Origin: an uncultured Candidatus Saccharibacteria bacterium
GTDB taxonomy: Bacteria > Patescibacteriota > Doudnabacteria > UBA920
Length of the DNA stretch: 64,000 nucleotides
Direction of reading: 5' to 3'
Assembly: GCA_964561365.1 (NCBI GenBank)
Contig: CAZLPF010000001.1
Coordinates: forward strand, 14,581-78,580
Part shown: piece after piece, positions 4,440-48,231 of the stretch
How the letters are laid out: the number at the start of each line of letters is the position of its first letter
How positions within the stretch are numbered: the first letter of the stretch is position 1
The notes under the pieces: model-generated
What the model saw: only the letters and a program-made list of their open reading frames with translations
The model's database searches: none
Told to the model about the DNA's origin: nothing
Position numbers and translations under genes: made by a program

Positions 4440-5010
4440 GTTCGTTACCGGTTGCCTTGGGTCCAAACGCTGCGTGCACGCAGCTTCCCTTCAGGCTGAA
4501 ACTACCCCAGCGGTTCGGCATGGAACGAGATCTCGATCCTCCTTACCCTTACGGTCCCTTACGATCCAGTGACCGCTCATCCGCCCTTTTTTTGGGCGGA
4601 CTGGTCTGGGTTGCTGGTTCGGTCGTCCGACTCGCACAACCCTCTCGGCAGAGAAAAGTACACCCGCTAAGGTGAGTACGGTCTGTTGTTGCACCGTTTT
4701 TACCTTTTCTGACTTTCACGAACGGTTTACGGGCCCTGTAGCACCCTTGCCGCGCCAATACGAACCATGGCGCTTATCACCTAGAACTAAGTCGCTTTCT
4801 GACCACCGTCATACCTCGTTTCAAAAGGTAACAGGTGGCACCATTCCACCGACGTACGGTTCGGTGAGTGCTTCTCCTCGCGGACTTATCCGTTGCCCTT
4901 CCCTTTGCAGGCGTATCCGACCTTCACCTTGAAGAGTCAGACGGAACAACGACGACTTCGCTCTGAACGGAATTTACACTAGGCTAAAATAAGCGTCAAG
5001 CGCCTTTTCC
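4440..5010. ncRNA. candidate structured non-coding RNA of unknown class (ORF-free, lower-GC intergenic block)
   Basis: ~570 nt with no protein-like ORF in six frames; GC visibly lower (~50-55%) than flanking CDS; several perfect hairpins (gctgcgtgcacgcagc at ~4468-4483; ccgccc-T7-gggcgg at ~4585-4603); CCTTAC triplet repeat at ~4548-4575. Confidence 0.3.
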
Positions 5011-5013
5011 ACT

Positions 5014-5034
5014 TATTTTTGCTACAATTCGGCC
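5014..5034 (+). promoter_or_regulatory. TACAAT -10 box six nt upstream of the cysS ATG (probable leaderless transcript)
   Basis: ttttgcTACAATtcggccATG; no Shine-Dalgarno; the same geometry is seen at rmuC. Confidence 0.35.
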
Positions 5035-6366
5035 ATGCTGAAACTCTACAATTCGCTGTCCAAGCAGCTCGAGGATTTTACCCCCACCTACCCGGACCAC
5101 GTGAACCTCTACAGCTGCGGGCCCACGGTCTACAACTTCGCGCACATTGGCAACCTCCGCAGCTTCGTGGCCGCGGACGTGCTCTACCGCACCCTGAAGC
5201 TCGCCGGCTACAAGCCCGACTGGGTTATGAACATTACGGACGTAGACGACAAGACCATTCGCGGCACGATTGCCGAGTTCGGTCCCAGCGCCGGGGTTGC
5301 GGAGCTGAAACAGCTCACCGAGCGGTACACCAAGTCTTTTAAAGAAGATTTGCGCGAACTCGGCGTGCTTGTGGACGAAATTCGCTTTTTCAACATTACC
5401 GACTACATACAAGAGATTCAGACTTTTGTCCTCGAGCTCATTGAAAAAGGCTTCGCGTACAAGGCTGACGACAGCAGCACCTACTTCAGCATTGAAAAAT
5501 ACCAGGAGCAATTCCACGACTATGGCGCGCTCGTGGGCGAGAAGTTTTTAGAGGGCAAAAAGATAGGCGCCCGGGTCAACGTGGACGAATACGAGAAGGA
5601 CAACCTCTCTGATTTTGCCCTTTGGAAGGCTCACGACGCGCAGGACGGGAACATTTTTTGGGACCATCCCACTTTGGGCAAGGGTCGTCCGGGCTGGCAC
5701 ATAGAGTGTTCGGTCATAAACAAAGTCGCCTTCAAGGGCGAGACTACGGACATACATACCGGGGGCGTTGACCTGAAGTTCCCCCACCATACGAACGAGA
5801 TAGCCCAGAGCCAGCCCGTCTACAAACCGTTCGTAAGCTATTGGGTCCACAGCGAGCACCTTTTGGTGGACGGCAAAAAAATGTCCAAGTCGCTCGGGAA
5901 CTTTCACACGCTCCACGACCTGAAAGAGCGCTACCAGGGTAAGTCTGAAATCGTCGGTCAAATGCTCCGCTACCTGTTCCTGCAGACCCACTACCGCGCG
6001 CAGGCGAACTTTACGCTCGCGTCGCTTGAGTCAACCGGCGCGGCGATTCAGGGGTTACTGCACCGATCAGCATCCGGTAAACCCGAAAGCACCCCTACCG
6101 ACGCGCTCGGGAATGACCTCAATACCGCAGAGGCTCTTTCCGTTGCGGCTGAAAATCCTTCCGATCTCGGGATAGATGTAGAAAAAATTAGAGCCTTCGA
6201 AACGAGCGAGCTGCCGGGCGACGTTCAGGCACTCACCAATGACAGGGCCGCGGCCCGAACGGCTAAAGATTTTTCTAAGTCCGACGAGCTTCGCAAAAAA
6301 ATCGAATCCCTCGGCTACGAGGTGCTCGACACGGGAACCGGCCAGGAAGTACGTCGAAAACTCTAG
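5035..6366 (+). CDS. cysS: cysteinyl-tRNA synthetase
   Basis: 443 aa; class I HIGH (FAHIGN) and KMSKS motifs; Zn-binding Cys/His positions. Confidence 0.9.
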   Translation: MLKLYNSLSKQLEDFTPTYPDHVNLYSCGPTVYNFAHIGNLRSFVAADVLYRTLKLAGYKPDWVMNITDVDDKTIRGTIAEFGPSAGVAELKQLTERYTKSFKEDLRELGVLVDEIRFFNITDYIQEIQTFVLELIEKGFAYKADDSSTYFSIEKYQEQFHDYGALVGEKFLEGKKIGARVNVDEYEKDNLSDFALWKAHDAQDGNIFWDHPTLGKGRPGWHIECSVINKVAFKGETTDIHTGGVDLKFPHHTNEIAQSQPVYKPFVSYWVHSEHLLVDGKKMSKSLGNFHTLHDLKERYQGKSEIVGQMLRYLFLQTHYRAQANFTLASLESTGAAIQGLLHRSASGKPESTPTDALGNDLNTAEALSVAAENPSDLGIDVEKIRAFETSELPGDVQALTNDRAAARTAKDFSKSDELRKKIESLGYEVLDTGTGQEVRRKL

Positions 6367-38642: not shown

Positions 38643-41621
38643 TCAGGCTAGGTGCCGGTAGGCGCAGCGGTGGTCGCGGACCTTCTCGTGCTCTTCTGAA
38701 AAGAGGTCGAACTCGGTCACGTGGACGATCCGCTCAATGGTTTTCAGGAAGCCGTCCTTGAGCTCCCCGAGGCGCTCGGGGGTCGCGAGCTCTTCTTCCA
38801 CGAGCTGGTCGGGGCAGAGGTACCAGTAGGTCATGCCGGCGACGGGTTCGCTCAGGAACTCCTCGGCCGCCCACTGGTAAATGTAGAGCTGGTCGAGGTC
38901 CGGCTTGTCGGACTTCTCGGGGACCTTTTCCCCGGTTTTGTAGTCAAAAATGTAGAGCCCGCCGTGGGTTTCGTCCATGCGGTCGATGCGGCCGGTGAAC
39001 TGGTACGGCCCGAGCGGCAGCTTGAAGGGCTGCTCTAAGTATTTCGGCGTGGGCGTGCGCGCTTCGGAGCGCCGGTAGAAGTGCTCGAGGACGCTCTGCC
39101 CGCGCGCGCGGTACTCGGCTTTCTGAATTTTCGTTTTGTACCACTCGTCGATCCAGCACTCGTCGTAGAGCTCGGCGAGCCGCTCCTTTGGCGGCAGGAC
39201 CGGCGCCGCCGGGGCGGCGGCGAATAGGTCGGCCTGCGCGCCGGCCCCCGCTCCCCTGAACTCTTTCAGGTAGCGCTCGAGCACCCGGTGGATGGTTTGG
39301 CCGAAGCTCAGGGCGGCCGAGCCCGGGCTCGGCATCTTTAGGTAGTACTGGTACTTGTACTGCAGCGGGCAGGTTTCGAAGGCCCGGAGCGCCGAGTAGG
39401 AAAACTTCGTCGGCAGGTCTTTGTACACGGCTTTCTTGGCCGTGGGCGCGGTCTGCCCGAACACCACGCGGCCGGTGGCCTTCGTCCCCTCTTTCGGCGC
39501 CGGCAAAAGGCCCGACTCTACGAGGAACGGCGACGGTTTTTTGAGCGTCTTTCCGCCGTAGTCCTTGGCCCACGAAAGGTAGAGGTGGCGCTTGGCCCGC
39601 GTGACGGCGACGTAGAACAGCCGGCGCTCTTCTTCGAGGTGGAAGTCGCCGCTCGGCAGCTGGTCTTTAATGAGCGCGGCCGGCAGCTCGAGGCTCTCGC
39701 CGCGCGCGCGGGTCGGGAATCGCTGCTCGACCATGCCGACGACGAAGACGTAGGTGAACTCCAGGCCCTTGGCCGAGTGCACGGTCATGACCTTCGCGCT
39801 CTCGGGGCCCAGGTTCGGGTCCTGCTGAATCTGGCCTTCGTCACCAGCTTCGAGCCGAAGGTCGAGCTCGTGCAGGAAACCGTGCACGCCCCGGTCTGCG
39901 CTCCGCTGCACGAACTCCTCAACCTGGCGGTAGAACTGCTCGAGCAGCTCGCGGTTCTCCACGTTCTCCGGCGTCTCTTCTTTCAGCAGGTCTTCGACGT
40001 GGAGGTCGGACACCGCCTCGACGAAGACCTCGTTCGCCCCGCGCGTTTGGGCGGCCGCCGCGTGCTTCTGCACGAGCTCGACGAGCGCCGCCGCCCGCCG
40101 CGCGGCCTCGGGGGAGAGCCCGTCGACTTCCCGGGCCCGCGCGGCGACCTCGAACAGCGAGCGCGTGCGCTTGACCGACTCCTGGAGCAGGAGCGCGAGC
40201 TCCTGGGGTTCGAGCTTCCAGTGCGGAAGCTGCAGGGCCCGGTACATGGCGGCCGGGTCGTGGACGTTCACGAGCAGCCGCAGGTAGCTAATGAGGTCCG
40301 AGATGAGCGTTTTCCGGTAGAGGCCGGTGCTGGCCACGAAGGTGTGCGGCACGCCGTAGGCGGCCAGGACCGGCAGCAGCTCTTCGGCCCCGGCGTTGCT
40401 GCGCACGAGCACGCCGAAGTCGTTCCAGGAAGCCTGGTCCCCCGCCCCGTCTTTCAGCGCGATCATTTTTTTAACCACGAGGTGCAGCTCTTCGGTCTGG
40501 TCCGTGCCCTCGATGACCGCCACGACGCCTGCTTCCTTCGCGGAGGCCTTGAGGCGCTTGTCTATGCCGAGGGCTACCTCGAGCCGGTCGGGGTTGTTGT
40601 GCTGTATGAAGTTGTAAGCCAGGTCCAAAATGTTCTGGCTCGAGCGGTAGTTCTCCACGAGCGTCACCTGGGCGGCGCTCGGGTAGTCTTTGCGGAACGC
40701 CAGGATGTTCGAAACCGAGGCGCCGCGGAACTTGTAAATGGACTGGTCGTCATCGCCGACCACGGTCAGGTTCTGGTGCTTCTGGGCTATGAGCTTCACG
40801 AGCTCGTACTGGGCGTAGTTCGTGTCCTGGAACTCGTCGACGAGCACGAGCTTGAACTTGTCCTGGTAGCGCGCGAGGACCGCCGGCCGCTCGCGGAAGA
40901 GCTTGAGCGCGTAGGAAATGAGGTCGCCGAAGTCCAGGGCGCCGGCGCCCAGCAGCAGGCGCTGGTAGGTGTGGTAGGCATTCGCGAGCTCCGTGGCCCG
41001 TGCCGCTTCCCCGCTGGCCGGACCTTCGGTGGCAACATCGGCGTTGGCCTTGAGCCCTCCGGCGTACTTCAGGTAGTCGTCGGGGGTTATGAGCTCGTCC
41101 TTGCAGCGCGAGAAGTGCTTGAGCATAGCCGAAATGAACTTCGATGGGTTCCCGAGGGGCCGGTAGTAGTCGAGCTCAAACTGGTGGAGGTTGTCGTGGA
41201 CGAGGACCCACTGCTCGGCTTCGGTCAGGAGCCGGAAGTTGTCCGGCAGGCCGACCTCGAGCCCCCGCTCTTCCAGCACGCGCTGGCAGAAGCTGTGGAA
41301 GGTCGAGATCCAGGTGTCGGCGTAGCCTAGGGGGAGTATCAAGTCCACGCGCTCGCGCATTTCGGTCGCGGCCTTTTCGGTGAACGTCAGGGCGAGGATT
41401 TCTTCGGGTTTGGCGAGATTGCCGGAAACCGCGCGGGCGATGCGCCGCGTTATGACGGTGGTCTTGCCCGTGCCGGCGCCGGCGACAATGAGCAGCGGCC
41501 CGGCCCCGCGGGTCACGGCCTCGGCCTGCCGTTCGTTTAAGCCTTCGAGCAAGCCGTCTCCGCCGGCCGGCGGAGACGGCTTCTCGACCTTCGCCGGTTT
41601 CTTTTTGCGCTCAGCTGCCAT
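38643..41621 (-). CDS. ATP-dependent DNA helicase (UvrD/PcrA/AddA-type SF1) fused to C-terminal PD-(D/E)xK RecB-family nuclease
   Basis: ~992 aa from MAAERKKK (41621; the earlier ATG would overlap the PIN gene); Walker A AGAGTGKTTV; SF1 motifs; C-terminal nuclease motifs GRIDRMDE, FDYKTG, QLYIYQ. Confidence 0.8.
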   Translation of the reverse strand: MAAERKKKPAKVEKPSPPAGGDGLLEGLNERQAEAVTRGAGPLLIVAGAGTGKTTVITRRIARAVSGNLAKPEEILALTFTEKAATEMRERVDLILPLGYADTWISTFHSFCQRVLEERGLEVGLPDNFRLLTEAEQWVLVHDNLHQFELDYYRPLGNPSKFISAMLKHFSRCKDELITPDDYLKYAGGLKANADVATEGPASGEAARATELANAYHTYQRLLLGAGALDFGDLISYALKLFRERPAVLARYQDKFKLVLVDEFQDTNYAQYELVKLIAQKHQNLTVVGDDDQSIYKFRGASVSNILAFRKDYPSAAQVTLVENYRSSQNILDLAYNFIQHNNPDRLEVALGIDKRLKASAKEAGVVAVIEGTDQTEELHLVVKKMIALKDGAGDQASWNDFGVLVRSNAGAEELLPVLAAYGVPHTFVASTGLYRKTLISDLISYLRLLVNVHDPAAMYRALQLPHWKLEPQELALLLQESVKRTRSLFEVAARAREVDGLSPEAARRAAALVELVQKHAAAAQTRGANEVFVEAVSDLHVEDLLKEETPENVENRELLEQFYRQVEEFVQRSADRGVHGFLHELDLRLEAGDEGQIQQDPNLGPESAKVMTVHSAKGLEFTYVFVVGMVEQRFPTRARGESLELPAALIKDQLPSGDFHLEEERRLFYVAVTRAKRHLYLSWAKDYGGKTLKKPSPFLVESGLLPAPKEGTKATGRVVFGQTAPTAKKAVYKDLPTKFSYSALRAFETCPLQYKYQYYLKMPSPGSAALSFGQTIHRVLERYLKEFRGAGAGAQADLFAAAPAAPVLPPKERLAELYDECWIDEWYKTKIQKAEYRARGQSVLEHFYRRSEARTPTPKYLEQPFKLPLGPYQFTGRIDRMDETHGGLYIFDYKTGEKVPEKSDKPDLDQLYIYQWAAEEFLSEPVAGMTYWYLCPDQLVEEELATPERLGELKDGFLKTIERIVHVTEFDLFSEEHEKVRDHRCAYRHLA

Positions 41622-41632
41622 GAAAAAAATTG

Positions 41633-42085
41633 TTAGGTCCGGCGCTGGCCGGAAATGAAGCTCGCCCACTTGTTCCAGAGGTCCTGGCCCTCGTCTTTGT
41701 AGTTGGCCCAGAACTGCTGCGGCCGGACTATGCGCACGCCCCGGTAGCGCTCTATGGAGAGCAGGTCGTTGTCCGAGGTCACGAGGTAGTCGGCCCGGGC
41801 CTCGACCGCGCTCTCGAGGATTTTATTGTCCTCGCGGTCGCGCACGATCCGCACCTGGCGGTAGTTCGGCACGTCCGAGACCTGCGCGAAGAACTCGTTC
41901 AGCTCCCGCTTGTAGTCGTCGTTGTCCACCACCTGCCTGAGGAGCAGCTTGTTCTCGCGGAGCGTCTGCTTGTTCGCGAAGGCCTCAATCTCCCCGCGCG
42001 CCACCGCGTCGATGATCTTCTTCTCGTAGCTGTACTCGTCGCGGAAGCCGTCGATGAGCACGTTCGTATCTAAAACGATTTTCAC
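41633..42085 (-). CDS. PIN-domain protein (VapC-like nuclease fold), no cognate antitoxin evident
   Basis: GTG start overlaps the TGA of the NYN gene (GTGA); ~150 aa; KIVLDTNVLID and LVTSDNDLL acidic motifs. Confidence 0.65.
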   Translation of the reverse strand: MKIVLDTNVLIDGFRDEYSYEKKIIDAVARGEIEAFANKQTLRENKLLLRQVVDNDDYKRELNEFFAQVSDVPNYRQVRIVRDREDNKILESAVEARADYLVTSDNDLLSIERYRGVRIVRPQQFWANYKDEGQDLWNKWASFISGQRRT

Positions 42086-42639
42086 TGCTCGTGCGGCTTG
42101 GCGAAGTCGTCGCGGGTCTTCATGGGCACCTTCGGCTGCCGCAGGAACTTGCCCTGGTCCTCGTCCATGTCCACGAAGCGCTCGGCGGCCTCGCGCAGCT
42201 TGCCCGAGCACGAGCGCCCGAAGGTCACGACCTCGAAGCCCACCCCGAGCTCCTTGAGGTACTCGGCGAGGGGCAGGTAGTCGCCGTCGCCGCTGCACAG
42301 GACAATGGTGTCCACCGCCGGAATGGTCCGGATAATGTCTACGGTCAGCCCCACGTCCCAGTCTCCTTTCTGCTGCCCGCCGGCGAACGTCTGGAGCTCT
42401 TTGACCTTGAGCTGCCAGCCGCCCTTCTGGAGGGCGTCGAAGAAGGTGTGCTCGAGCGGCTCCTTGGCCTGCACGACGTAGGCCATGGCCCGCGCCAGGT
42501 GCCGGCCGTTTACGGCCGCGGCTAGGACCGCGTTGAAGTCGACCCGCTTGCTGTAGAGGTAGCGGGCGCTGTAGTAGAGGTTCTGGACGTCGGCGAACAC
42601 GCCGACGCGCTGGTAGCGGACGTCAGGGGAAATGTTCAT
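42082..42639 (-). CDS. NYN-domain (LabA/Rae1-like) predicted ribonuclease
   Basis: 185 aa; VGVFADVQNLYYSAR; IVLCSGDGDYLPLAEYLKELG; ATGA overlap with the rmuC stop. Confidence 0.7.
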   Translation of the reverse strand: MNISPDVRYQRVGVFADVQNLYYSARYLYSKRVDFNAVLAAAVNGRHLARAMAYVVQAKEPLEHTFFDALQKGGWQLKVKELQTFAGGQQKGDWDVGLTVDIIRTIPAVDTIVLCSGDGDYLPLAEYLKELGVGFEVVTFGRSCSGKLREAAERFVDMDEDQGKFLRQPKVPMKTRDDFAKPHEQ

Positions 42640-43676
42640 GTGCGGTCGGTCAGGAGCGGGTCGGGTTCGGGCTTGGCCTCGACCTGGAGGTTGGCCGCGT
42701 TCTCAATGCTGCCGCGGAGCTTCATGAAATCCGTGCTGACCGTGCCCATCATGTTGCCGGCGTTCTTTATGTGCACCGAGAGCTTGTCTAGGTTGTCGCC
42801 GAACTTGTCGCTCTCTTTCTTCATGCCGGAAATCATGTTCAGGAGCTGGCCGGCGGCTTTGTTCATCTGCTGGCCGCGGAGCGAAATTAAGATGCTCTTG
42901 AGCAGCAGGTGGAGGCTGTTGGGGCCGGCCATGAAGATCTGTTTGCTCCGCGCGTACTCCGAGGCTTCGGACGACTGGGAGATTTCCTGGAACACGCCCT
43001 CGCCGGGGACGAACATGACCGCGTACTCGAGCGTGCCCTCCTGCGGCAGAATGTACTTTTTGTGGATTTCGTCGATGCGCTTCTTCACGTCTTTCAGGAA
43101 GGCTTTGCGCAGGGTGTCCTGGCTGTCGGGGGTGCCGGCTTCCTGGAGCAGCCGGAAGTTCTCGAGCGAGAATTTGCTGTCGACCGAGAGCATGCGCCGC
43201 TCTTCGCCGACCCATACCACGGCGTCTACCACCTCGCCGCTCTTGAAGCGGTACTGGGCCTCGAAGCCGCCCTGCGGCAGCACCTGCTGGAGCAGGTTCT
43301 CGAGCAGCTCTTCGCCGAAGTTGCCGCGCATTTTGCTGTTGGCGAGCGTTTCGGTCAGCCGCTTTATGTCCGGGCCAATGTTCTGCTGGACCTGCGAGAG
43401 TTGGCCGAGCTCGCGCTGCAGCAGCGAAATGACCTTGGCGGCGTTGTCGAGCCGCTCGTTTATGGCTTTGTTCGTTTCGTTCAGGCTCTGCTGGGTGCCC
43501 TCGCGGATGCTGTCCGTGCCCTGCTTTATCTCTTTCATCCACTCCATCATGACCCCGAGGGCCTGGTTGTCCTGGGGTTGGTTGAGCCTAGCTTTCAGCT
43601 GCCAGACCACGTAGAGCAGGACCCCGATTGCAAGTAAAACTATGGCCCCGAGCGCAAATAAAACTTGGGTATTCAT
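42636..43676 (-). CDS. rmuC: DNA recombination protein RmuC
   Basis: 346 aa; N-terminal TM; long coiled coil; RmuC C-terminal domain (YAVMFVPGEGVF...); TACAAT six nt upstream of the ATG (leaderless-type). Confidence 0.8.
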   Translation of the reverse strand: MNTQVLFALGAIVLLAIGVLLYVVWQLKARLNQPQDNQALGVMMEWMKEIKQGTDSIREGTQQSLNETNKAINERLDNAAKVISLLQRELGQLSQVQQNIGPDIKRLTETLANSKMRGNFGEELLENLLQQVLPQGGFEAQYRFKSGEVVDAVVWVGEERRMLSVDSKFSLENFRLLQEAGTPDSQDTLRKAFLKDVKKRIDEIHKKYILPQEGTLEYAVMFVPGEGVFQEISQSSEASEYARSKQIFMAGPNSLHLLLKSILISLRGQQMNKAAGQLLNMISGMKKESDKFGDNLDKLSVHIKNAGNMMGTVSTDFMKLRGSIENAANLQVEAKPEPDPLLTDRT

Positions 43677-44135: not shown

Positions 44136-44170
44136 TTGACGAATTAGCAGTCTCGGTATTAGACTGCTAA
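44136..44170 (+). promoter_or_regulatory. CIRCE-like HrcA-type operator overlapping the hsp20 promoter
   Basis: TTGACG -35 at 44136-44141, then the perfect dyad TTAGCAGTC-N9-GACTGCTAA (44144-44170). Consensus CIRCE is TTAGCACTC-N9-GAGTGCTAA; the two differences are symmetry-preserving. Confidence 0.55.
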
Positions 44171-44224: not shown

Positions 44225-44644
44225 ATGGTCAACTTAATCCCCCGCTCCGCATTCGGGCTGTCCCGCTTGCCGAGCATTTGGGACGACGCCGACGACCTCT
44301 GGCCGCTCTCCGGCACCGCCGGTTCTTCCGGCCTTTCGGTCTCGGAAGACGACCGGCACGTCTACGTGGAGGCCCAGGTTCCGGGCGTAGATGCCGACAA
44401 GGTCGACGTGACCTTTGACCAGGGCATGCTCTGGATAAAGGCCGCGCAGGACCGTGAAGAGAAGAACGAACAGCGGAAGTTCTACCGCCGCTCGGCGTCC
44501 AGCTTCTCCTACCGCGTGGCCATTCCCGGAGACGTGGACGAGACGAAAGAACCCGAGGCGACCTGTAAGAACGGCATCATGAAAGTGACGTTCACCAAGC
44601 GCCCCGAGGTCCAGCCAAAAAAGATTTCGGTCCGGAAAGAGTAA
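44225..44644 (+). CDS. Hsp20/alpha-crystallin family small heat-shock protein
   Basis: 139 aa; alpha-crystallin domain (VYVEAQVPGVDADKVDVTFDQGMLWIKA...; C-terminal IMKVTFTK). Confidence 0.85.
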   Translation: MVNLIPRSAFGLSRLPSIWDDADDLWPLSGTAGSSGLSVSEDDRHVYVEAQVPGVDADKVDVTFDQGMLWIKAAQDREEKNEQRKFYRRSASSFSYRVAIPGDVDETKEPEATCKNGIMKVTFTKRPEVQPKKISVRKE

Positions 44645-44650
44645 TATAAA

Positions 44651-44686
44651 AAAACCGGTCAACCTTTTGGCCGGTTTTTTTATTTA
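44651..44686. terminator. bidirectional rho-independent terminator
   Basis: accggtcaa-cctt-ttggccggt (9-bp stem with one G-U pair) followed by T7 on the plus strand and a T-tract on the minus strand; between hsp20 and the AT-rich gene. Confidence 0.6.
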
Positions 44687-45313
44687 TTATTGATAGCTTA
44701 TTATCTCCGAGCTATCATCGAGCTCCTTAAATAACTGAGTTGTCGAATAATTTGTATTATAGGCATCATAATAATTTATTTGGATTTTTAATCCAGGCAA
44801 TCCTGCGGACTTGGCAGCTTTTAAGAATTCCATCAAAACTAATCCTGTAACCGGTTTACCTAAATTATCTAAAACGATTGTACCTGCTTTGTCAGGCACA
44901 ACGACTGTCTTGTTTAAAAAAGTTAATATTTTATTTGAATCTAGTGGGCTTATTATTGGAGCCATTTTAACATTGCGAGCAAGACCATTCCCAACATTTT
45001 TCAAGTAAAAAAACGATTCTTGTTTATCAAAATTTGAAATTATAAAAGGGGCTCGCTGAAAATTGTATTGCTTAATATTTACTTCCTTAAGATCATGCGT
45101 CTCTTTTGTATAAATCAAAACAACAATTCCAGTAAAGGAGATAACGTAAATATTTACTTTATCTTTTAGCTCTTCATTTCCAAGAATTTGCTGAAAAACA
45201 CAAACTAGTAGGATTGAAAGTAAAAAAATTGCCCAGCTGCAAAAATCAAGAGTTGTCTTTCTTTTTAAGAAGGAATTAACTTCCCCTATTTTTTTATCTA
45301 GAAATATAAACAT
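44687..45313 (-). CDS. hypothetical membrane protein encoded by a very AT-rich (foreign-looking) gene
   Basis: ~208 aa from ATG 45313 (ORF-track TTG at 45322); N-terminal TM helices FCSWAIFLLSILLVCVF and VNIYVISFTGIVVLIY plus ~120-aa soluble C-domain with no recognisable motif; GC ~30% by eye vs ~65% in flanks; starts 9 nt after the stop of the Rcl-Nudix gene. Confidence 0.55.
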   Translation of the reverse strand: MFIFLDKKIGEVNSFLKRKTTLDFCSWAIFLLSILLVCVFQQILGNEELKDKVNIYVISFTGIVVLIYTKETHDLKEVNIKQYNFQRAPFIISNFDKQESFFYLKNVGNGLARNVKMAPIISPLDSNKILTFLNKTVVVPDKAGTIVLDNLGKPVTGLVLMEFLKAAKSAGLPGLKIQINYYDAYNTNYSTTQLFKELDDSSEIISYQ

Positions 45314-45322
45314 GTTTAACAA

Positions 45323-46357
45323 TTATTTAAAAAGCAAATTTATTAAGATTTGCTGTTCATCAAAAACAAATTTATTTGCCTTAGCTTTTATTAGTGGAAG
45401 CCAGTAGGCGCGGTCGAGGTCCCATTCGGATCGGCGGATGGGATCTTGTATTACCCCGGTGCGGTAGGTAGCTTTTCGGACGAGGGCGATGATACGGTTG
45501 TTGCCGCCGTTTCGGTTGTAGCTCCAAGTGTAGGTGCCTAAAGTGGCATCGCTCGGCGAAACTTCCACACCTGTTTCTTCCTTTACCCGTTGGGTCAACG
45601 CCTGGTCAGGGTCTACGCCAGTGGCGAGCATTTTGCCGCCGGGGAGCGCGTACTTGCCGCGGACTTTTTTTGAAACGTTCTTTCGGTCCGCGTACTTTAT
45701 GACCAGCATGCCGCGGTCTTTGTCGGTCACCACGACCTTTTGGGCAATGTAGGACCGGCTGTTTGAAGAATTTTGCATCAAATGGCTGTCGAGGTACGGG
45801 TAGCTGGTGCGGTAGTAGCCCACGGCGTCGTCTATGACGCTCAGGCTCTTAAAGATGCTCTCGCTCCCCCACCGCAGCTTCAGGTAGCTGATCAGTTCGT
45901 TAAAGTCGTGCAGGACTACGTCGCACGGGACGCTCACGAACGGGTGTACCCAGTTCCGGTGCGTGGTGCCGTTTAGGGTGAAGCTGTCTTTTACGAATTT
46001 GCTGCCGCGCGCGGCCAAACCTACCAGGGGCTTTCCGTAGTACTTGGCTATGAGCATTTCCTGCGATCCGCCGACGGAAATGTCGTCGCTCAGGTACACG
46101 AGCACCAGGTCGGCTTTGGAAATGAGGAAGCAGTCGCGGCCGAAAATGGCTTTCGGGTCGGTTTCCGGCAGGCTGCGGCCGTCCCGGGTGCGGGCGGGGT
46201 CGAGGTGCGTTACGTTCATGCTGGTAGCTGCTGAAAGGCGGCTGCACAGCTCGTCGCGCCAGCGTTCGGTGCCGAACGAAGAGTTCCCGGAGACTTTTCC
46301 GGCTACGTAGAGCGTCAGGTTTTTGGTGTCTTTCGGCATAGCTTCCGTTGACGGCAT
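45323..46357 (-). CDS. fusion protein: N-terminal nucleoside 2-deoxyribosyltransferase/Rcl(DNPH1)-like domain plus C-terminal Nudix hydrolase domain
   Basis: 344 aa; SD GGGGGTGA upstream of ATG 46357; N-domain LYVAGKVSG...ADLVLVYLSDDISVGGSQEMLIAKYYGKPLVGL (family signature with catalytic Glu); C-domain Nudix box GGKMLATGVDPDQALTQRVKEETGVEV; GC intermediate (~57% by eye); the 3' end runs into the AT-rich tract. Confidence 0.65.
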   Translation of the reverse strand: MPSTEAMPKDTKNLTLYVAGKVSGNSSFGTERWRDELCSRLSAATSMNVTHLDPARTRDGRSLPETDPKAIFGRDCFLISKADLVLVYLSDDISVGGSQEMLIAKYYGKPLVGLAARGSKFVKDSFTLNGTTHRNWVHPFVSVPCDVVLHDFNELISYLKLRWGSESIFKSLSVIDDAVGYYRTSYPYLDSHLMQNSSNSRSYIAQKVVVTDKDRGMLVIKYADRKNVSKKVRGKYALPGGKMLATGVDPDQALTQRVKEETGVEVSPSDATLGTYTWSYNRNGGNNRIIALVRKATYRTGVIQDPIRRSEWDLDRAYWLPLIKAKANKFVFDEQQILINLLFK

Positions 46358-46384
46358 TATTCACCCCCGGCTCTGTGCGGTCAA

Positions 46385-46428
46385 TTGCAAAGAAAAACCC
46401 TTCCCCGCCTGCTGGCGGGAAAGGGTTT
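46385..46428 (-). terminator. rho-independent terminator after the 46440..46991 gene
   Basis: 15-bp near-perfect stem aaacccttccccgcc/ggcgggaaagggttt with a TTTTTCTTT tract on the minus strand. Confidence 0.55.
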
Positions 46429-46439
46429 GCTCGGTTTCT

Positions 46440-46991
46440 TTAGCGGGCGTAATCGTAGCCCGGATCGTAGTCTGCGCCGCTGTCGCTCGGGTAGGTCTGC
46501 TGGTACTGCTGCATGACGCGCTCTAGGTCCCGGTCGCCGTAGTAGCCGGAGCGCGGGCCGTTGCCGCCCTTGACCATGGCAAAAATGAACAGCGCGAAGA
46601 GGATGAGCCCGGGAATGAGGACCCACATGAGGCCCTTCTTGGCTTCGGCTGCGTCGTCGGTCTGGAACGCGAACGGCGGGTACTTGTCGGTGAGGCCGAA
46701 GAAGTAGGTGTTCACGCGCGCCTGCCAGTTGAACACGCCCTTCACGAGCGCGAACATGGGGCGGGGGTAGCGGCCGGTGAACAGCACCGCAATCTGGCCC
46801 ACGACGGCGCCAATGAAGGCGCAGAAAGCCAGGATGTAAATGACAACGAGGTGCGGAATGAGCATCAGGGGCTTCACGAACCCGAGGAGCGTGGCGAGCG
46901 CGAGCCAGCGCGACGAGCTTTCCGGGTACGGGACCGCGAGCTGCACCGGGTGCTTCATTTCCGGCTGCGGGGGCATGGGTACGGTTTCCAT
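46440..46991 (-). CDS. polytopic membrane protein (DUF4389-like), unknown function
   Basis: 183 aa; 3-4 TM; Tyr/Asp-rich C-terminus; domain assignment from memory only. Confidence 0.5.
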   Translation of the reverse strand: METVPMPPQPEMKHPVQLAVPYPESSSRWLALATLLGFVKPLMLIPHLVVIYILAFCAFIGAVVGQIAVLFTGRYPRPMFALVKGVFNWQARVNTYFFGLTDKYPPFAFQTDDAAEAKKGLMWVLIPGLILFALFIFAMVKGGNGPRSGYYGDRDLERVMQQYQQTYPSDSGADYDPGYDYAR

Positions 46992-47804: not shown

Positions 47805-47880
47805 CGCGGGATAGAGCAATTGGCAGCTCGCCAGGCTCATAACCTGGAGGTTGGGGGTTCGAGTCCCTCTCCCGCAACCA
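47805..47880 (+). tRNA. initiator tRNA-fMet (anticodon CAT)
   Basis: 76 nt; C1:A72 mismatch; anticodon loop CTCATAA; T-loop GGTTCGAGTCC; encoded 3' CCA; close to E. coli tRNA-fMet. Confidence 0.85.
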
Positions 47881-47941
47881 AGCGAGCGCTCAAATGAATT
47901 GAGCGTTGGCTTGGTTTTAAGGCTCGACCACGATTACGTAT

Positions 47942-48018
47942 GCCGACGTAGCTCAGCTGGTTAGAGCGAGGGACTCATAAGCCCTAGGTCGGAGGTTCAA
48001 GTCCTCCCGTCGGCACCA
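47942..48018 (+). tRNA. tRNA with CAT anticodon (elongator Met or Ile2/lysidine type)
   Basis: 77 nt; GCCGACG acceptor; ACGTAGCTCAG D-arm; loop CTCATAA; encoded CCA. Met vs Ile2 cannot be decided by eye. Confidence 0.8.
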
Positions 48019-48154
48019 CGGGTCATTAAACCTTGCGGGCTCCGCGCGCTGGAATATCCAGCTCGCTGCGCCCTCCAGGTTTGTGCCCCTCCTCCCCAAA
48101 ATCTCCGAACGGAGTTTTTGGGGACCCCAAAGAGCCCAGAGTAGTTTTATGTGT

Positions 48155-48231
48155 GGGGGCGTAGCTCAGTTGGTTAGAGCGTCCGCCTGTCACGCGGAAG
48201 GTCACGGGTTCGAGTCCCGCCGTCCCCGCCA
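48155..48231 (+). tRNA. tRNA-Asp (anticodon GTC)
   Basis: 77 nt; GGGGGCG/CGTCCCC acceptor; loop CTGTCAC; encoded CCA. Confidence 0.85.

Follow-up and report, generated by a model that had tools for sequence, protein, structure and literature searches.

Accessory genes embedded in type I restriction-modification (R-M) loci are known, the one for the anticodon nuclease PrrC being an example, and R-M operons and the surroundings of OLD nucleases are typical locations of accessory defence genes. Cap15 and OptE, the S-2TMbeta effectors of CBASS and Panoptes, are small proteins in which a pair of N-terminal membrane helices precedes a soluble, beta-rich domain, which in OptE begins at residue 73 (PMC12657218). 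The nucleoside 2-deoxyribosyltransferase (NDT) superfamily also has a member turned on nucleotides in defence, namely the NDT-like effector of retron Ec86, an abortive-infection toxin that depletes NAD+ (PMC13276650). The locus described here lies in a 64-kb stretch of contig CAZLPF010000001.1, which was analysed as a whole and is called the window, and it consists of two co-oriented genes on the minus strand: a fusion gene (45323..46357), which joins a domain of the NDT/Rcl superfamily (the N-domain) to a Nudix domain, and, 9 nt downstream, a 208-codon gene (44687..45313) labelled ORF B. A sequence-only reading of this DNA had placed both genes at these positions, where both open reading frames (ORFs) were recovered, and had proposed the pair as a toxin/defence or nucleotide-depletion module. 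That candidate is withdrawn; the locus is better explained if ORF B is, as we consider probable, foreign cargo beside an unrelated housekeeping enzyme.

As for the evidence, a sister strain represented by two JGI contigs (L001 and L002) has a fusion protein 94% identical to that of the window, with 95% identity at the nucleotide level, and it retains the fusion gene without ORF B; this is an outcome that the sequence-only reading had itself named as refuting its module, which fails on that count. The homology between the window and L001 extends from position 46627 down to 45399, is then interrupted, and picks up again at 44647, precisely at the stop codon of hsp20; between these breakpoints the window has 752 AT-rich bases and L001 has 325 unrelated ones. 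At the left breakpoint, 25 codons short of the end of the fusion gene, the identity to the sister protein P0001 drops from 95-97% (190/195 in the N-domain, 118/124 in the Nudix body) to 40% (10/25 in the tail). The GC content at third codon positions (GC3) changes at the same point, being 0.755 in the body of the gene and 0.154 in its tail, while the tail keeps the family pattern F..DEQ..L and the length of the protein is unchanged. Hence, the AT-rich DNA is not confined to the downstream gene, as had been thought; it begins inside the fusion gene, at about 45399, so that the last 25 codons belong to the islet. The sister strain carries a different hairpin where the window has the one shared by ORF B and hsp20, and an Rfam scan of the 250-bp sister intergenic segment that takes the place of the islet found nothing.

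Regarding composition, ORF B has a GC content of 0.308 and a GC3 of 0.258, compared with 0.582 and 0.755 for the body of the fusion gene and with 0.60-0.66 and 0.81-0.94 for the flanking genes. The islet is the strongest compositional outlier of the window, with a minimum GC of 0.263 against a mean of 0.632 (standard deviation 0.061); windowed GC is 0.26-0.36 at about 44600-45400 and 0.55-0.70 on either side. The extreme AT-richness seen in the sequence-only reading is thus borne out, and so is its view that the frame is truly coding: the probability of a 208-codon open frame at the composition of ORF B is about 2e-8, and among 2000 shuffled versions of the islet the longest stop-free run reached 130 codons, whereas the actual one has 211. 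The foreign look of the gene also holds, given a GC3 of 0.26 (0.15 in the tail) against 0.75-0.94 in the host and the abrupt loss of identity at the breakpoint; judged by these traits, ORF B is a horizontally acquired gene for a foreign membrane protein.

The islet would have arisen when a 752-bp segment of 31% GC took the place of the final 25 codons of the fusion gene and of the intergenic DNA between it and the stop codon of hsp20, with a crossover at the conserved AYWLP codons. Since the replacement tail is homologous to the one it displaced, the low-GC donor probably carried a fusion orthologue followed by ORF B. A fusion orthologue of low GC does exist, in locus L006 (gene 0.36, tail 0.27). 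The junction would be a clean example of gene transfer, in which recombination inside a conserved gene swapped its 3' end for a divergent homologous tail of low GC. The edges of the islet carry an imperfect 15-nt direct repeat (TTTATTATTGATAGC at 44683-44697 and TTTATTAGTGGAAGC at 45387-45401); it was rejected as a target-site duplication, as an AT-rich repeat with 12/15 matches is probably due to chance. In L001 the sister homology breaks a further time, inside hsp20 at the equivalent of window position 44499, and passes into AT-rich DNA (L001 1752-2071); the result is a chimeric ORF of 91 aa, in which a hydrophobic N-terminus precedes the C-terminus of Hsp20. Either the locus is recurrently targeted by low-GC DNA, or this short contig is chimeric.

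The two genes did not co-occur at any other locus sampled. No relative of ORF B was found in 16 loci with the fusion or the N-domain (119 kb, searched with tblastn and a hidden Markov model (HMM) of the ORF B family), a result that includes 0/8 contexts of fusion orthologues and 0/4 contexts of stand-alone N-domains; conversely, no member of the N-domain family was found in 16 ORF B loci (160 kb). One match of P0042, an N-domain homologue fused to a CobA/CobO/BtuR-like domain, in an ORF B locus (L022) was set aside as irrelevant because it falls on the CobA-like half, 7 kb from ORF B. In PADLOC-DB v2 the fusion protein matched only PDC-S07, weakly and on the Nudix box (E 5.6e-4), and the N-domain, ORF B and P0064 had no match; the defence check thus returned no family for either protein apart from this Nudix-level hit.

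Homologues of the fusion protein occur in Candidatus Uhrbacteria and other Patescibacteria, which marks the window as DNA of a Candidate Phyla Radiation (CPR) bacterium. Full-length orthologues stand in eight distinct contexts, seven of them beyond the sister strain at 38-47% identity. Their surroundings are metabolic, with HAD hydrolase, ABC-F ATPases, an aminoacyl-tRNA synthetase, shikimate-pathway genes, a cupin, an MFS transporter, a GNAT acetyltransferase, Inositol_P-family phosphatases (twice), further Nudix genes (three times) and a dCMP deaminase as neighbours. The N-domain itself comes in four forms: alone (∼190 aa), as a tandem duplication (∼385 aa), in the Nudix fusion (∼340 aa), and once with the CobA/CobO/BtuR-like domain of P0042. 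The stand-alone form sits in a conserved cluster, Epimerase/RmlD - N-domain - His_Phos_1 (- HAD), and the tandem form (L031/L032) adjoins PPDK_N and PEP-utilizer genes. No R-M or other recognised defence-system domain was present among the genes listed around the fusion and N-domain loci, where conflict-type genes come no nearer than a HicAB pair in L006, at a distance of about 5 kb. Two apparent resemblances were rejected, since the 194-aa gene 5' of the fusion gene in L007 is not an N-domain paralogue and the SDR gene of the window is a different gene from the Epimerase/RmlD partner of the stand-alone forms.

That the NDT/Rcl-like and Nudix parts form a fusion within one 344-aa frame, as had been read from the letters, proved correct. 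The assignment of the N-domain to NDT/Rcl stood as to its fold, which is the flavodoxin-like one of NDT, and not as to family membership: against PF05014 it scored 16.2-17.7 bits, below the cut-off of 28.8, so kinship is shown by the fold and not by sequence. The N-domain is also a sub-threshold match to PF15891. Weak PF05014 matches were obtained for 29/31 members of the N-domain family (the best at 4.1e-5), which places the kinship at the level of the clan without making the N-domain a member of PF05014; a profile of the family compared with the sequences in PDB found no solved relative. In 63 N-domain sequences, D83, D92, S94, G96, G97, E100, K105, K120 and F121 are invariant, and Y17, A19, G20, K21, W33 and R34 nearly so. 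In the AlphaFold2 (AF2) model, Glu100 lies at the beginning of helix 98-106, which closely follows strand 84-89, and it would fall in register with the NDT/Rcl motif, S/D-x-G-x-x-x-E-[LM]-x-x-A, where its position is presumably that of the nucleophilic glutamate. On this predicted model and in that register, the invariant E100, D92 and D83 and the nearly invariant Y17 would occupy the secondary-structure positions expected of NDT catalytic residues. The N-domain differs from NDT, DNPH1 (Rcl) and MilB-BlsM, of the PF05014 clan, in scoring below the Pfam thresholds and having no solved relative by sequence, in its own invariant motifs (WR, DDISVGGSQEM, GKF, HPFV and CD), in a helical extension of ∼50 aa, and in being restricted to Patescibacteria among the hits seen.

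The C-terminal half has a Nudix fold and matches PF00293, as expected, over residues 208-336 (31.9 bits against a cut-off of 21.1; E 1.5e-7). The Nudix box had been called canonical and is not: it has ...TQRVKEETGV, reading QRVKEE and not REUxEE, so that QR replaces RE, the Glu of GX5E is missing, and there is one extra residue. The sister protein P0001 shares the QR-for-RE change and the loss of the GX5E Glu, and in both proteins the EE, G and hydrophobic positions of the box are retained. The window protein differs in these traits from Nudix hydrolases of MutT type (PF00293), and also from its more distant orthologues P0011, P0013 and P0050, which have the canonical GX5EX7REUXEEXGU.

Regarding its role, the fusion gene would be a vertically inherited, lineage-typical enzyme gene of the Uhrbacteria (Patescibacteria). 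The N-domain most likely acts on a phosphorylated (deoxy)nucleotide, whose base it would split off or exchange, and the Nudix domain would supply or process a diphosphate-linked precursor; it is plausible, from the domain make-up, that the protein acts on nucleotides in two steps. The recurrent partner of the N-domain family is a phosphohydrolase, which fits a (pyro)phosphatase step coupled to N-glycosidic cleavage or exchange within ordinary nucleotide or sugar-phosphate metabolism; in other lineages, neighbours of the His-phosphatase, HAD and inositol-monophosphatase families seem to fill the role of the Nudix domain. The fusion protein would then serve nucleotide or sugar-phosphate salvage in organisms unable to make nucleotides, and would not be a toxin. 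The N-domain clusters may point to a nucleotide or sugar-phosphate pathway of Patescibacteria not described before, and this NDT-clan family, seen only in Patescibacteria among the hits and always with a phosphohydrolase as partner, may serve the salvage or breakdown of nucleotides in nucleotide auxotrophs. No account of an NDT-Nudix fusion in Patescibacteria turned up in the literature searches.

As for the ORF B protein, the AF2 model built on 52 relatives (pLDDT 93.7) has a helical hairpin followed by a beta-rich domain (residues 91-207) with one helix. The sequence-only reading gave it two N-terminal transmembrane (TM) helices; the first hydrophobic helix is a clear TM segment, whereas the second is shorter and marginally hydrophobic. 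Lys and Arg flank the hairpin on its N- and C-terminal sides, which suggests that both ends of the protein are cytoplasmic. The end of the second helix holds the best-conserved residues of the family, T61, Y68, T69, E71, T72, L75 and K76 (YTKET..LK); after it, P89 and the pattern KN.G.G.A.N are conserved. ORF B is intact, with all the family-conserved residues present. The conserved polar face of the long helix suggests that the protein oligomerises; it may do so through this face, perturbing the membrane.

A word-based search returned one homologue of ORF B, and a HMMER search with a two-sequence profile returned 246 cluster representatives at E<=1e-3, 42 of them at E<=1e-10; most relatives have 190-250 aa. 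The soluble domain had been described as unrecognisable, and it is: ORF B and 52 relatives gave nothing usable against Pfam, NCBIfam, PHROGs and PADLOC, and relatives were not found in viral contigs, annotated phages or plasmids. Neither the ORF B family nor the N-domain family is described in the libraries searched. Each is a variation on something known, the one being an NDT-clan enzyme and the other, ORF B, a small membrane protein of defence islands; no categorically new kind is involved.

The neighbourhoods of the ORF B family were compared at 16 non-redundant loci, 12 of which were informative (more than about 3 kb of context); the metagenome scan for relatives used a 12-sequence alignment. 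The hosts are Veblenbacteria, Doudnabacteria, Saccharibacteria, unclassified Patescibacteria and one Bacteroidota metagenome-assembled genome (MAG), with further loci from metagenomes. R-M genes lie within a few genes of the homologue at 8 of the 12 informative loci, the neighbours being N6_Mtase (five times), Methylase_S, HSDR_N and ResIII (three times each), Eco57I, N6_N4_Mtase and HNH_2 (twice each), a C5 methylase, an LlaMI endonuclease and a D12 methylase. Three homologues lie within, or immediately follow, type I R-M operons: in L026 the homologue separates hsdM from hsdS, in L003 it stands 5' of hsdS-hsdR and after a GajA-like OLD-nuclease fragment, and in L021 it comes straight after hsdR. 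Local GC is 4-12 points under that of the locus at 7/16 loci, and some loci carry mobile-element genes, such as one of AEP primase type. An all-against-all BLAST of the neighbours at the 16 loci found no conserved partner. Genes of this family would travel singly, usually being more AT-rich than their surroundings and mostly in or beside R-M operons; as the relatives cluster with R-M genes, a defence flavour holds for ORF B alone, and with modest confidence the protein may work alone, as an accessory membrane protein of conflict or defence. With ∼250 cluster representatives riding with R-M genes, the family is a reasonable new candidate for accessory defence in a phylum whose defence is poorly known, and it is the part of this locus most worth following.

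Several of these loci have features of their own. At two related loci (L024 1081-1800 and L025 5251-5970), a gene that overlaps the homologue's stop codon encodes a 239-aa protein whose N-terminus bears the Cys/His motif MNCRLC...NRCEAH; no other downstream partner was seen more than once in the family. In L026 (7950-11394), the homologue and four small ORFs (195, 156, 280 and 283 aa) lie between hsdM and hsdS-hsdR. L019/L020 (6278-7978, minus strand) have a gene for a 566-aa protein that combines a LexA DNA-binding domain, an S24 peptidase and a C5 cytosine DNA methyltransferase; it adjoins a gene for an LlaMI-type restriction endonuclease, an unusual R-M arrangement that is possibly under SOS control.

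The likeness to the known systems is partial in each case. The N-domain shares with the Ec86 effector its NDT-superfamily domain; unlike the retron, the fusion gene has no reverse transcriptase or non-coding RNA partner, and its N-domain lacks a PADLOC match and is conserved in metabolic neighbourhoods. ORF B recalls the Cap15/OptE architecture, yet fails all homology tests for that family, having neither a sequence-profile match nor a structural match. Moreover, the 73 neighbours scanned at ORF B loci included no cyclase, CD-NTase or mCpol among their 25 commonest families, so that no prominent signal-synthase family stands beside the relatives, where R-M genes dominate. As with the accessory genes of type I R-M systems, relatives of ORF B are found within hsd loci (L026, L003 and L021); in contrast to proteins such as PrrC, ORF B is a membrane protein, shows no homology to them and has no recognisable enzymatic domain.

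The account in which the fusion protein destroys nucleotides, by its Nudix and then its N-glycosidase activity, with ORF B as the membrane partner (a sensor, antitoxin or co-effector) of an abortive-infection or toxin module, is very improbable and already refuted in large part by how the two genes are distributed. It draws on the orientation and 9-nt spacing of the genes with no predicted terminator between them, on the homologous tail of the islet, from which the donor probably had the same adjacency, on the defence neighbourhoods in which ORF B relatives occur, and on the NAD+-depleting NDT-like effector of retron Ec86 (PMC13276650); it is opposed by the closest relative, which keeps the fusion gene without ORF B, by the lack of co-occurrence in 16 + 16 other loci, by the conservation of the fusion and N-domain among metabolic genes, and by PADLOC, which offers nothing beyond PDC-S07. 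In its weak form, as a functional link in the donor lineage, the module has a similarly slim chance. It is very unlikely that the ORF B family is a new class of membrane-anchored effectors (the hairpin and a cytoplasmic beta domain, with the conserved YTKET..LK face) acting beside R-M systems in Patescibacteria and coupled in the donor to the NDT-Nudix protein as a nucleotide-controlled abortive-infection pair like the Cap15/OptE systems. Very unlikely, too, is that ORF B is itself a nucleotide-sensing Cap15/OptE (S-2TMbeta) effector whose ligand the NDT-Nudix neighbour makes or destroys; what speaks for it is the architecture, a pair of N-terminal membrane helices ahead of a soluble, beta-rich domain of ∼120 aa that starts at residue ∼88, compared with 73 in OptE (PMC12657218), and the failed homology tests and missing signal synthases stand on the other side.

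A cargo without defence function is a possible, if unlikely, alternative: ORF B could be a membrane accessory of R-M systems, a maintenance gene of a mobile element, or a neutral hitch-hiker in variable regions. It matches no known defence model, phage or plasmid, 4/12 informative loci have no R-M genes (L010, L012, L022 and L025), and mobile-element genes occur at some; homologues inside type I R-M operons (L003 and L026), one of them beside the GajA-like fragment, argue against it. The possibility that the AT-rich segment is a metagenome assembly chimera takes its appeal from the extreme GC shift with sharp edges, from the source being a MAG, and from the only exact match of ORF B being the window's own record. 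It is extremely improbable, as it would need two precise, frame-preserving joins: the flanks are contiguous in the independent sister assembly, the fusion frame crosses the left junction with its length unchanged and a family-conserved tail, the right junction coincides with the stop codon of hsp20 and has its own terminator, and ORF B keeps its frame and conserved residues. Foreign cargo beside an unrelated housekeeping enzyme is thus the preferred reading, and certain points weigh against it: the adjacency of ORF B and a fusion orthologue in the donor, which was not found, is implied by the homologous tail; in L025 an ORF B relative directly follows and overlaps a Nudix gene; the Nudix domain of the window protein may, given its box, not be catalytic; there are no R-M genes near ORF B in the window; and the association with R-M genes was drawn from 16 loci with the fusion and N-domain loci as sole control. 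The Nudix genes of L025 were rejected as fusion-like partners: they are canonical, show no relation to the fusion, and do not occur in the sister locus L024.

Table 1. Features of the two-gene locus, by window position, with the regions of the ORF B protein (residues) and the loci of stand-alone N-domains (positions within each locus)
Feature	Position	Strand	Details
Fusion gene	45323..46357	-	344 aa + stop; NDT/Rcl-superfamily N-domain joined to Nudix domain
N-domain	45773..46357	-	aa 1-195; unnamed family of the nucleoside 2-deoxyribosyltransferase/SLOG clan
Glu100 codon, candidate catalytic nucleophile	46058..46060	-	in DDISVGGSQEM motif; invariant in 63/63 sequences
Nudix domain	45326..45772	-	aa 196-344; PF00293
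Degenerate Nudix box GGKMLATGVDPDQALTQRVKEETGV	45566..45640	-	aa 240-264; alignment of 15 orthologues
AT-rich replacement tail of fusion gene	45323..45399	-	aa 320-344, LPLIKAKANKFVFDEQQILINLLFK, + stop
ORF B	44687..45313	-	208 aa + stop from ATG; 211 aa from upstream TTG
ORF B regions	residues 2-208		N-terminal amphipathic helix 2-20; TM helix 24-44; long helix 49-87; beta-rich domain 88-208 (AF2)
Foreign AT-rich islet, 752 bp	44648..45399	.	replacement 3' end of fusion gene, 9-nt spacer, ORF B and its own terminator
Bidirectional terminator-like hairpin, ORF B / convergent hsp20	44646..44683	.	17-bp stem, A/T runs on both sides; part of islet
Promoter-like site TTGACC-17-AATAAT 5' of fusion gene	46356..46384	-	10/12 consensus matches
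Terminator-like hairpin closing upstream DUF4389 gene	46395..46428	-	15-bp stem with 9 GC pairs, then T-run
Stand-alone N-domain loci	L027-L030		gene at 5001-5570 or 1066-1635

Both hairpins of the window and the promoter-like site were found as the sequence-only reading had them, together with the tRNA cluster at 47805-48231 (two tRNA-Met and one tRNA-Asp). The promoter-like site probably drives both genes: as no terminator-like site is predicted between the fusion gene and ORF B, the latter is probably expressed from the promoter of the former. The genes around ORF B are housekeeping genes, encoding PheS, an AddA-like helicase-nuclease, PIN, NYN, RmuC, hsp20, DUF4389 and SDR proteins, tRNAs and a CCA/poly(A) polymerase. 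Just upstream of hsp20, a series of genes at 38643-43676 code for proteins that process nucleic acids: an AddA-like UvrD helicase with a PD-(D/E)XK nuclease (1008 aa), PIN_3, NYN and RmuC. A perfect inverted repeat, TTAGCAGTC-N9-GACTGCTAA, is located at 44144-44170, ∼55 nt 5' of the hsp20 start (44225); it is the only match within the window, with 0 expected by chance, and it resembles what we take to be the CIRCE/HrcA operator (TTAGCACTC-N9-GAGTGCTAA) with the inner bases swapped.

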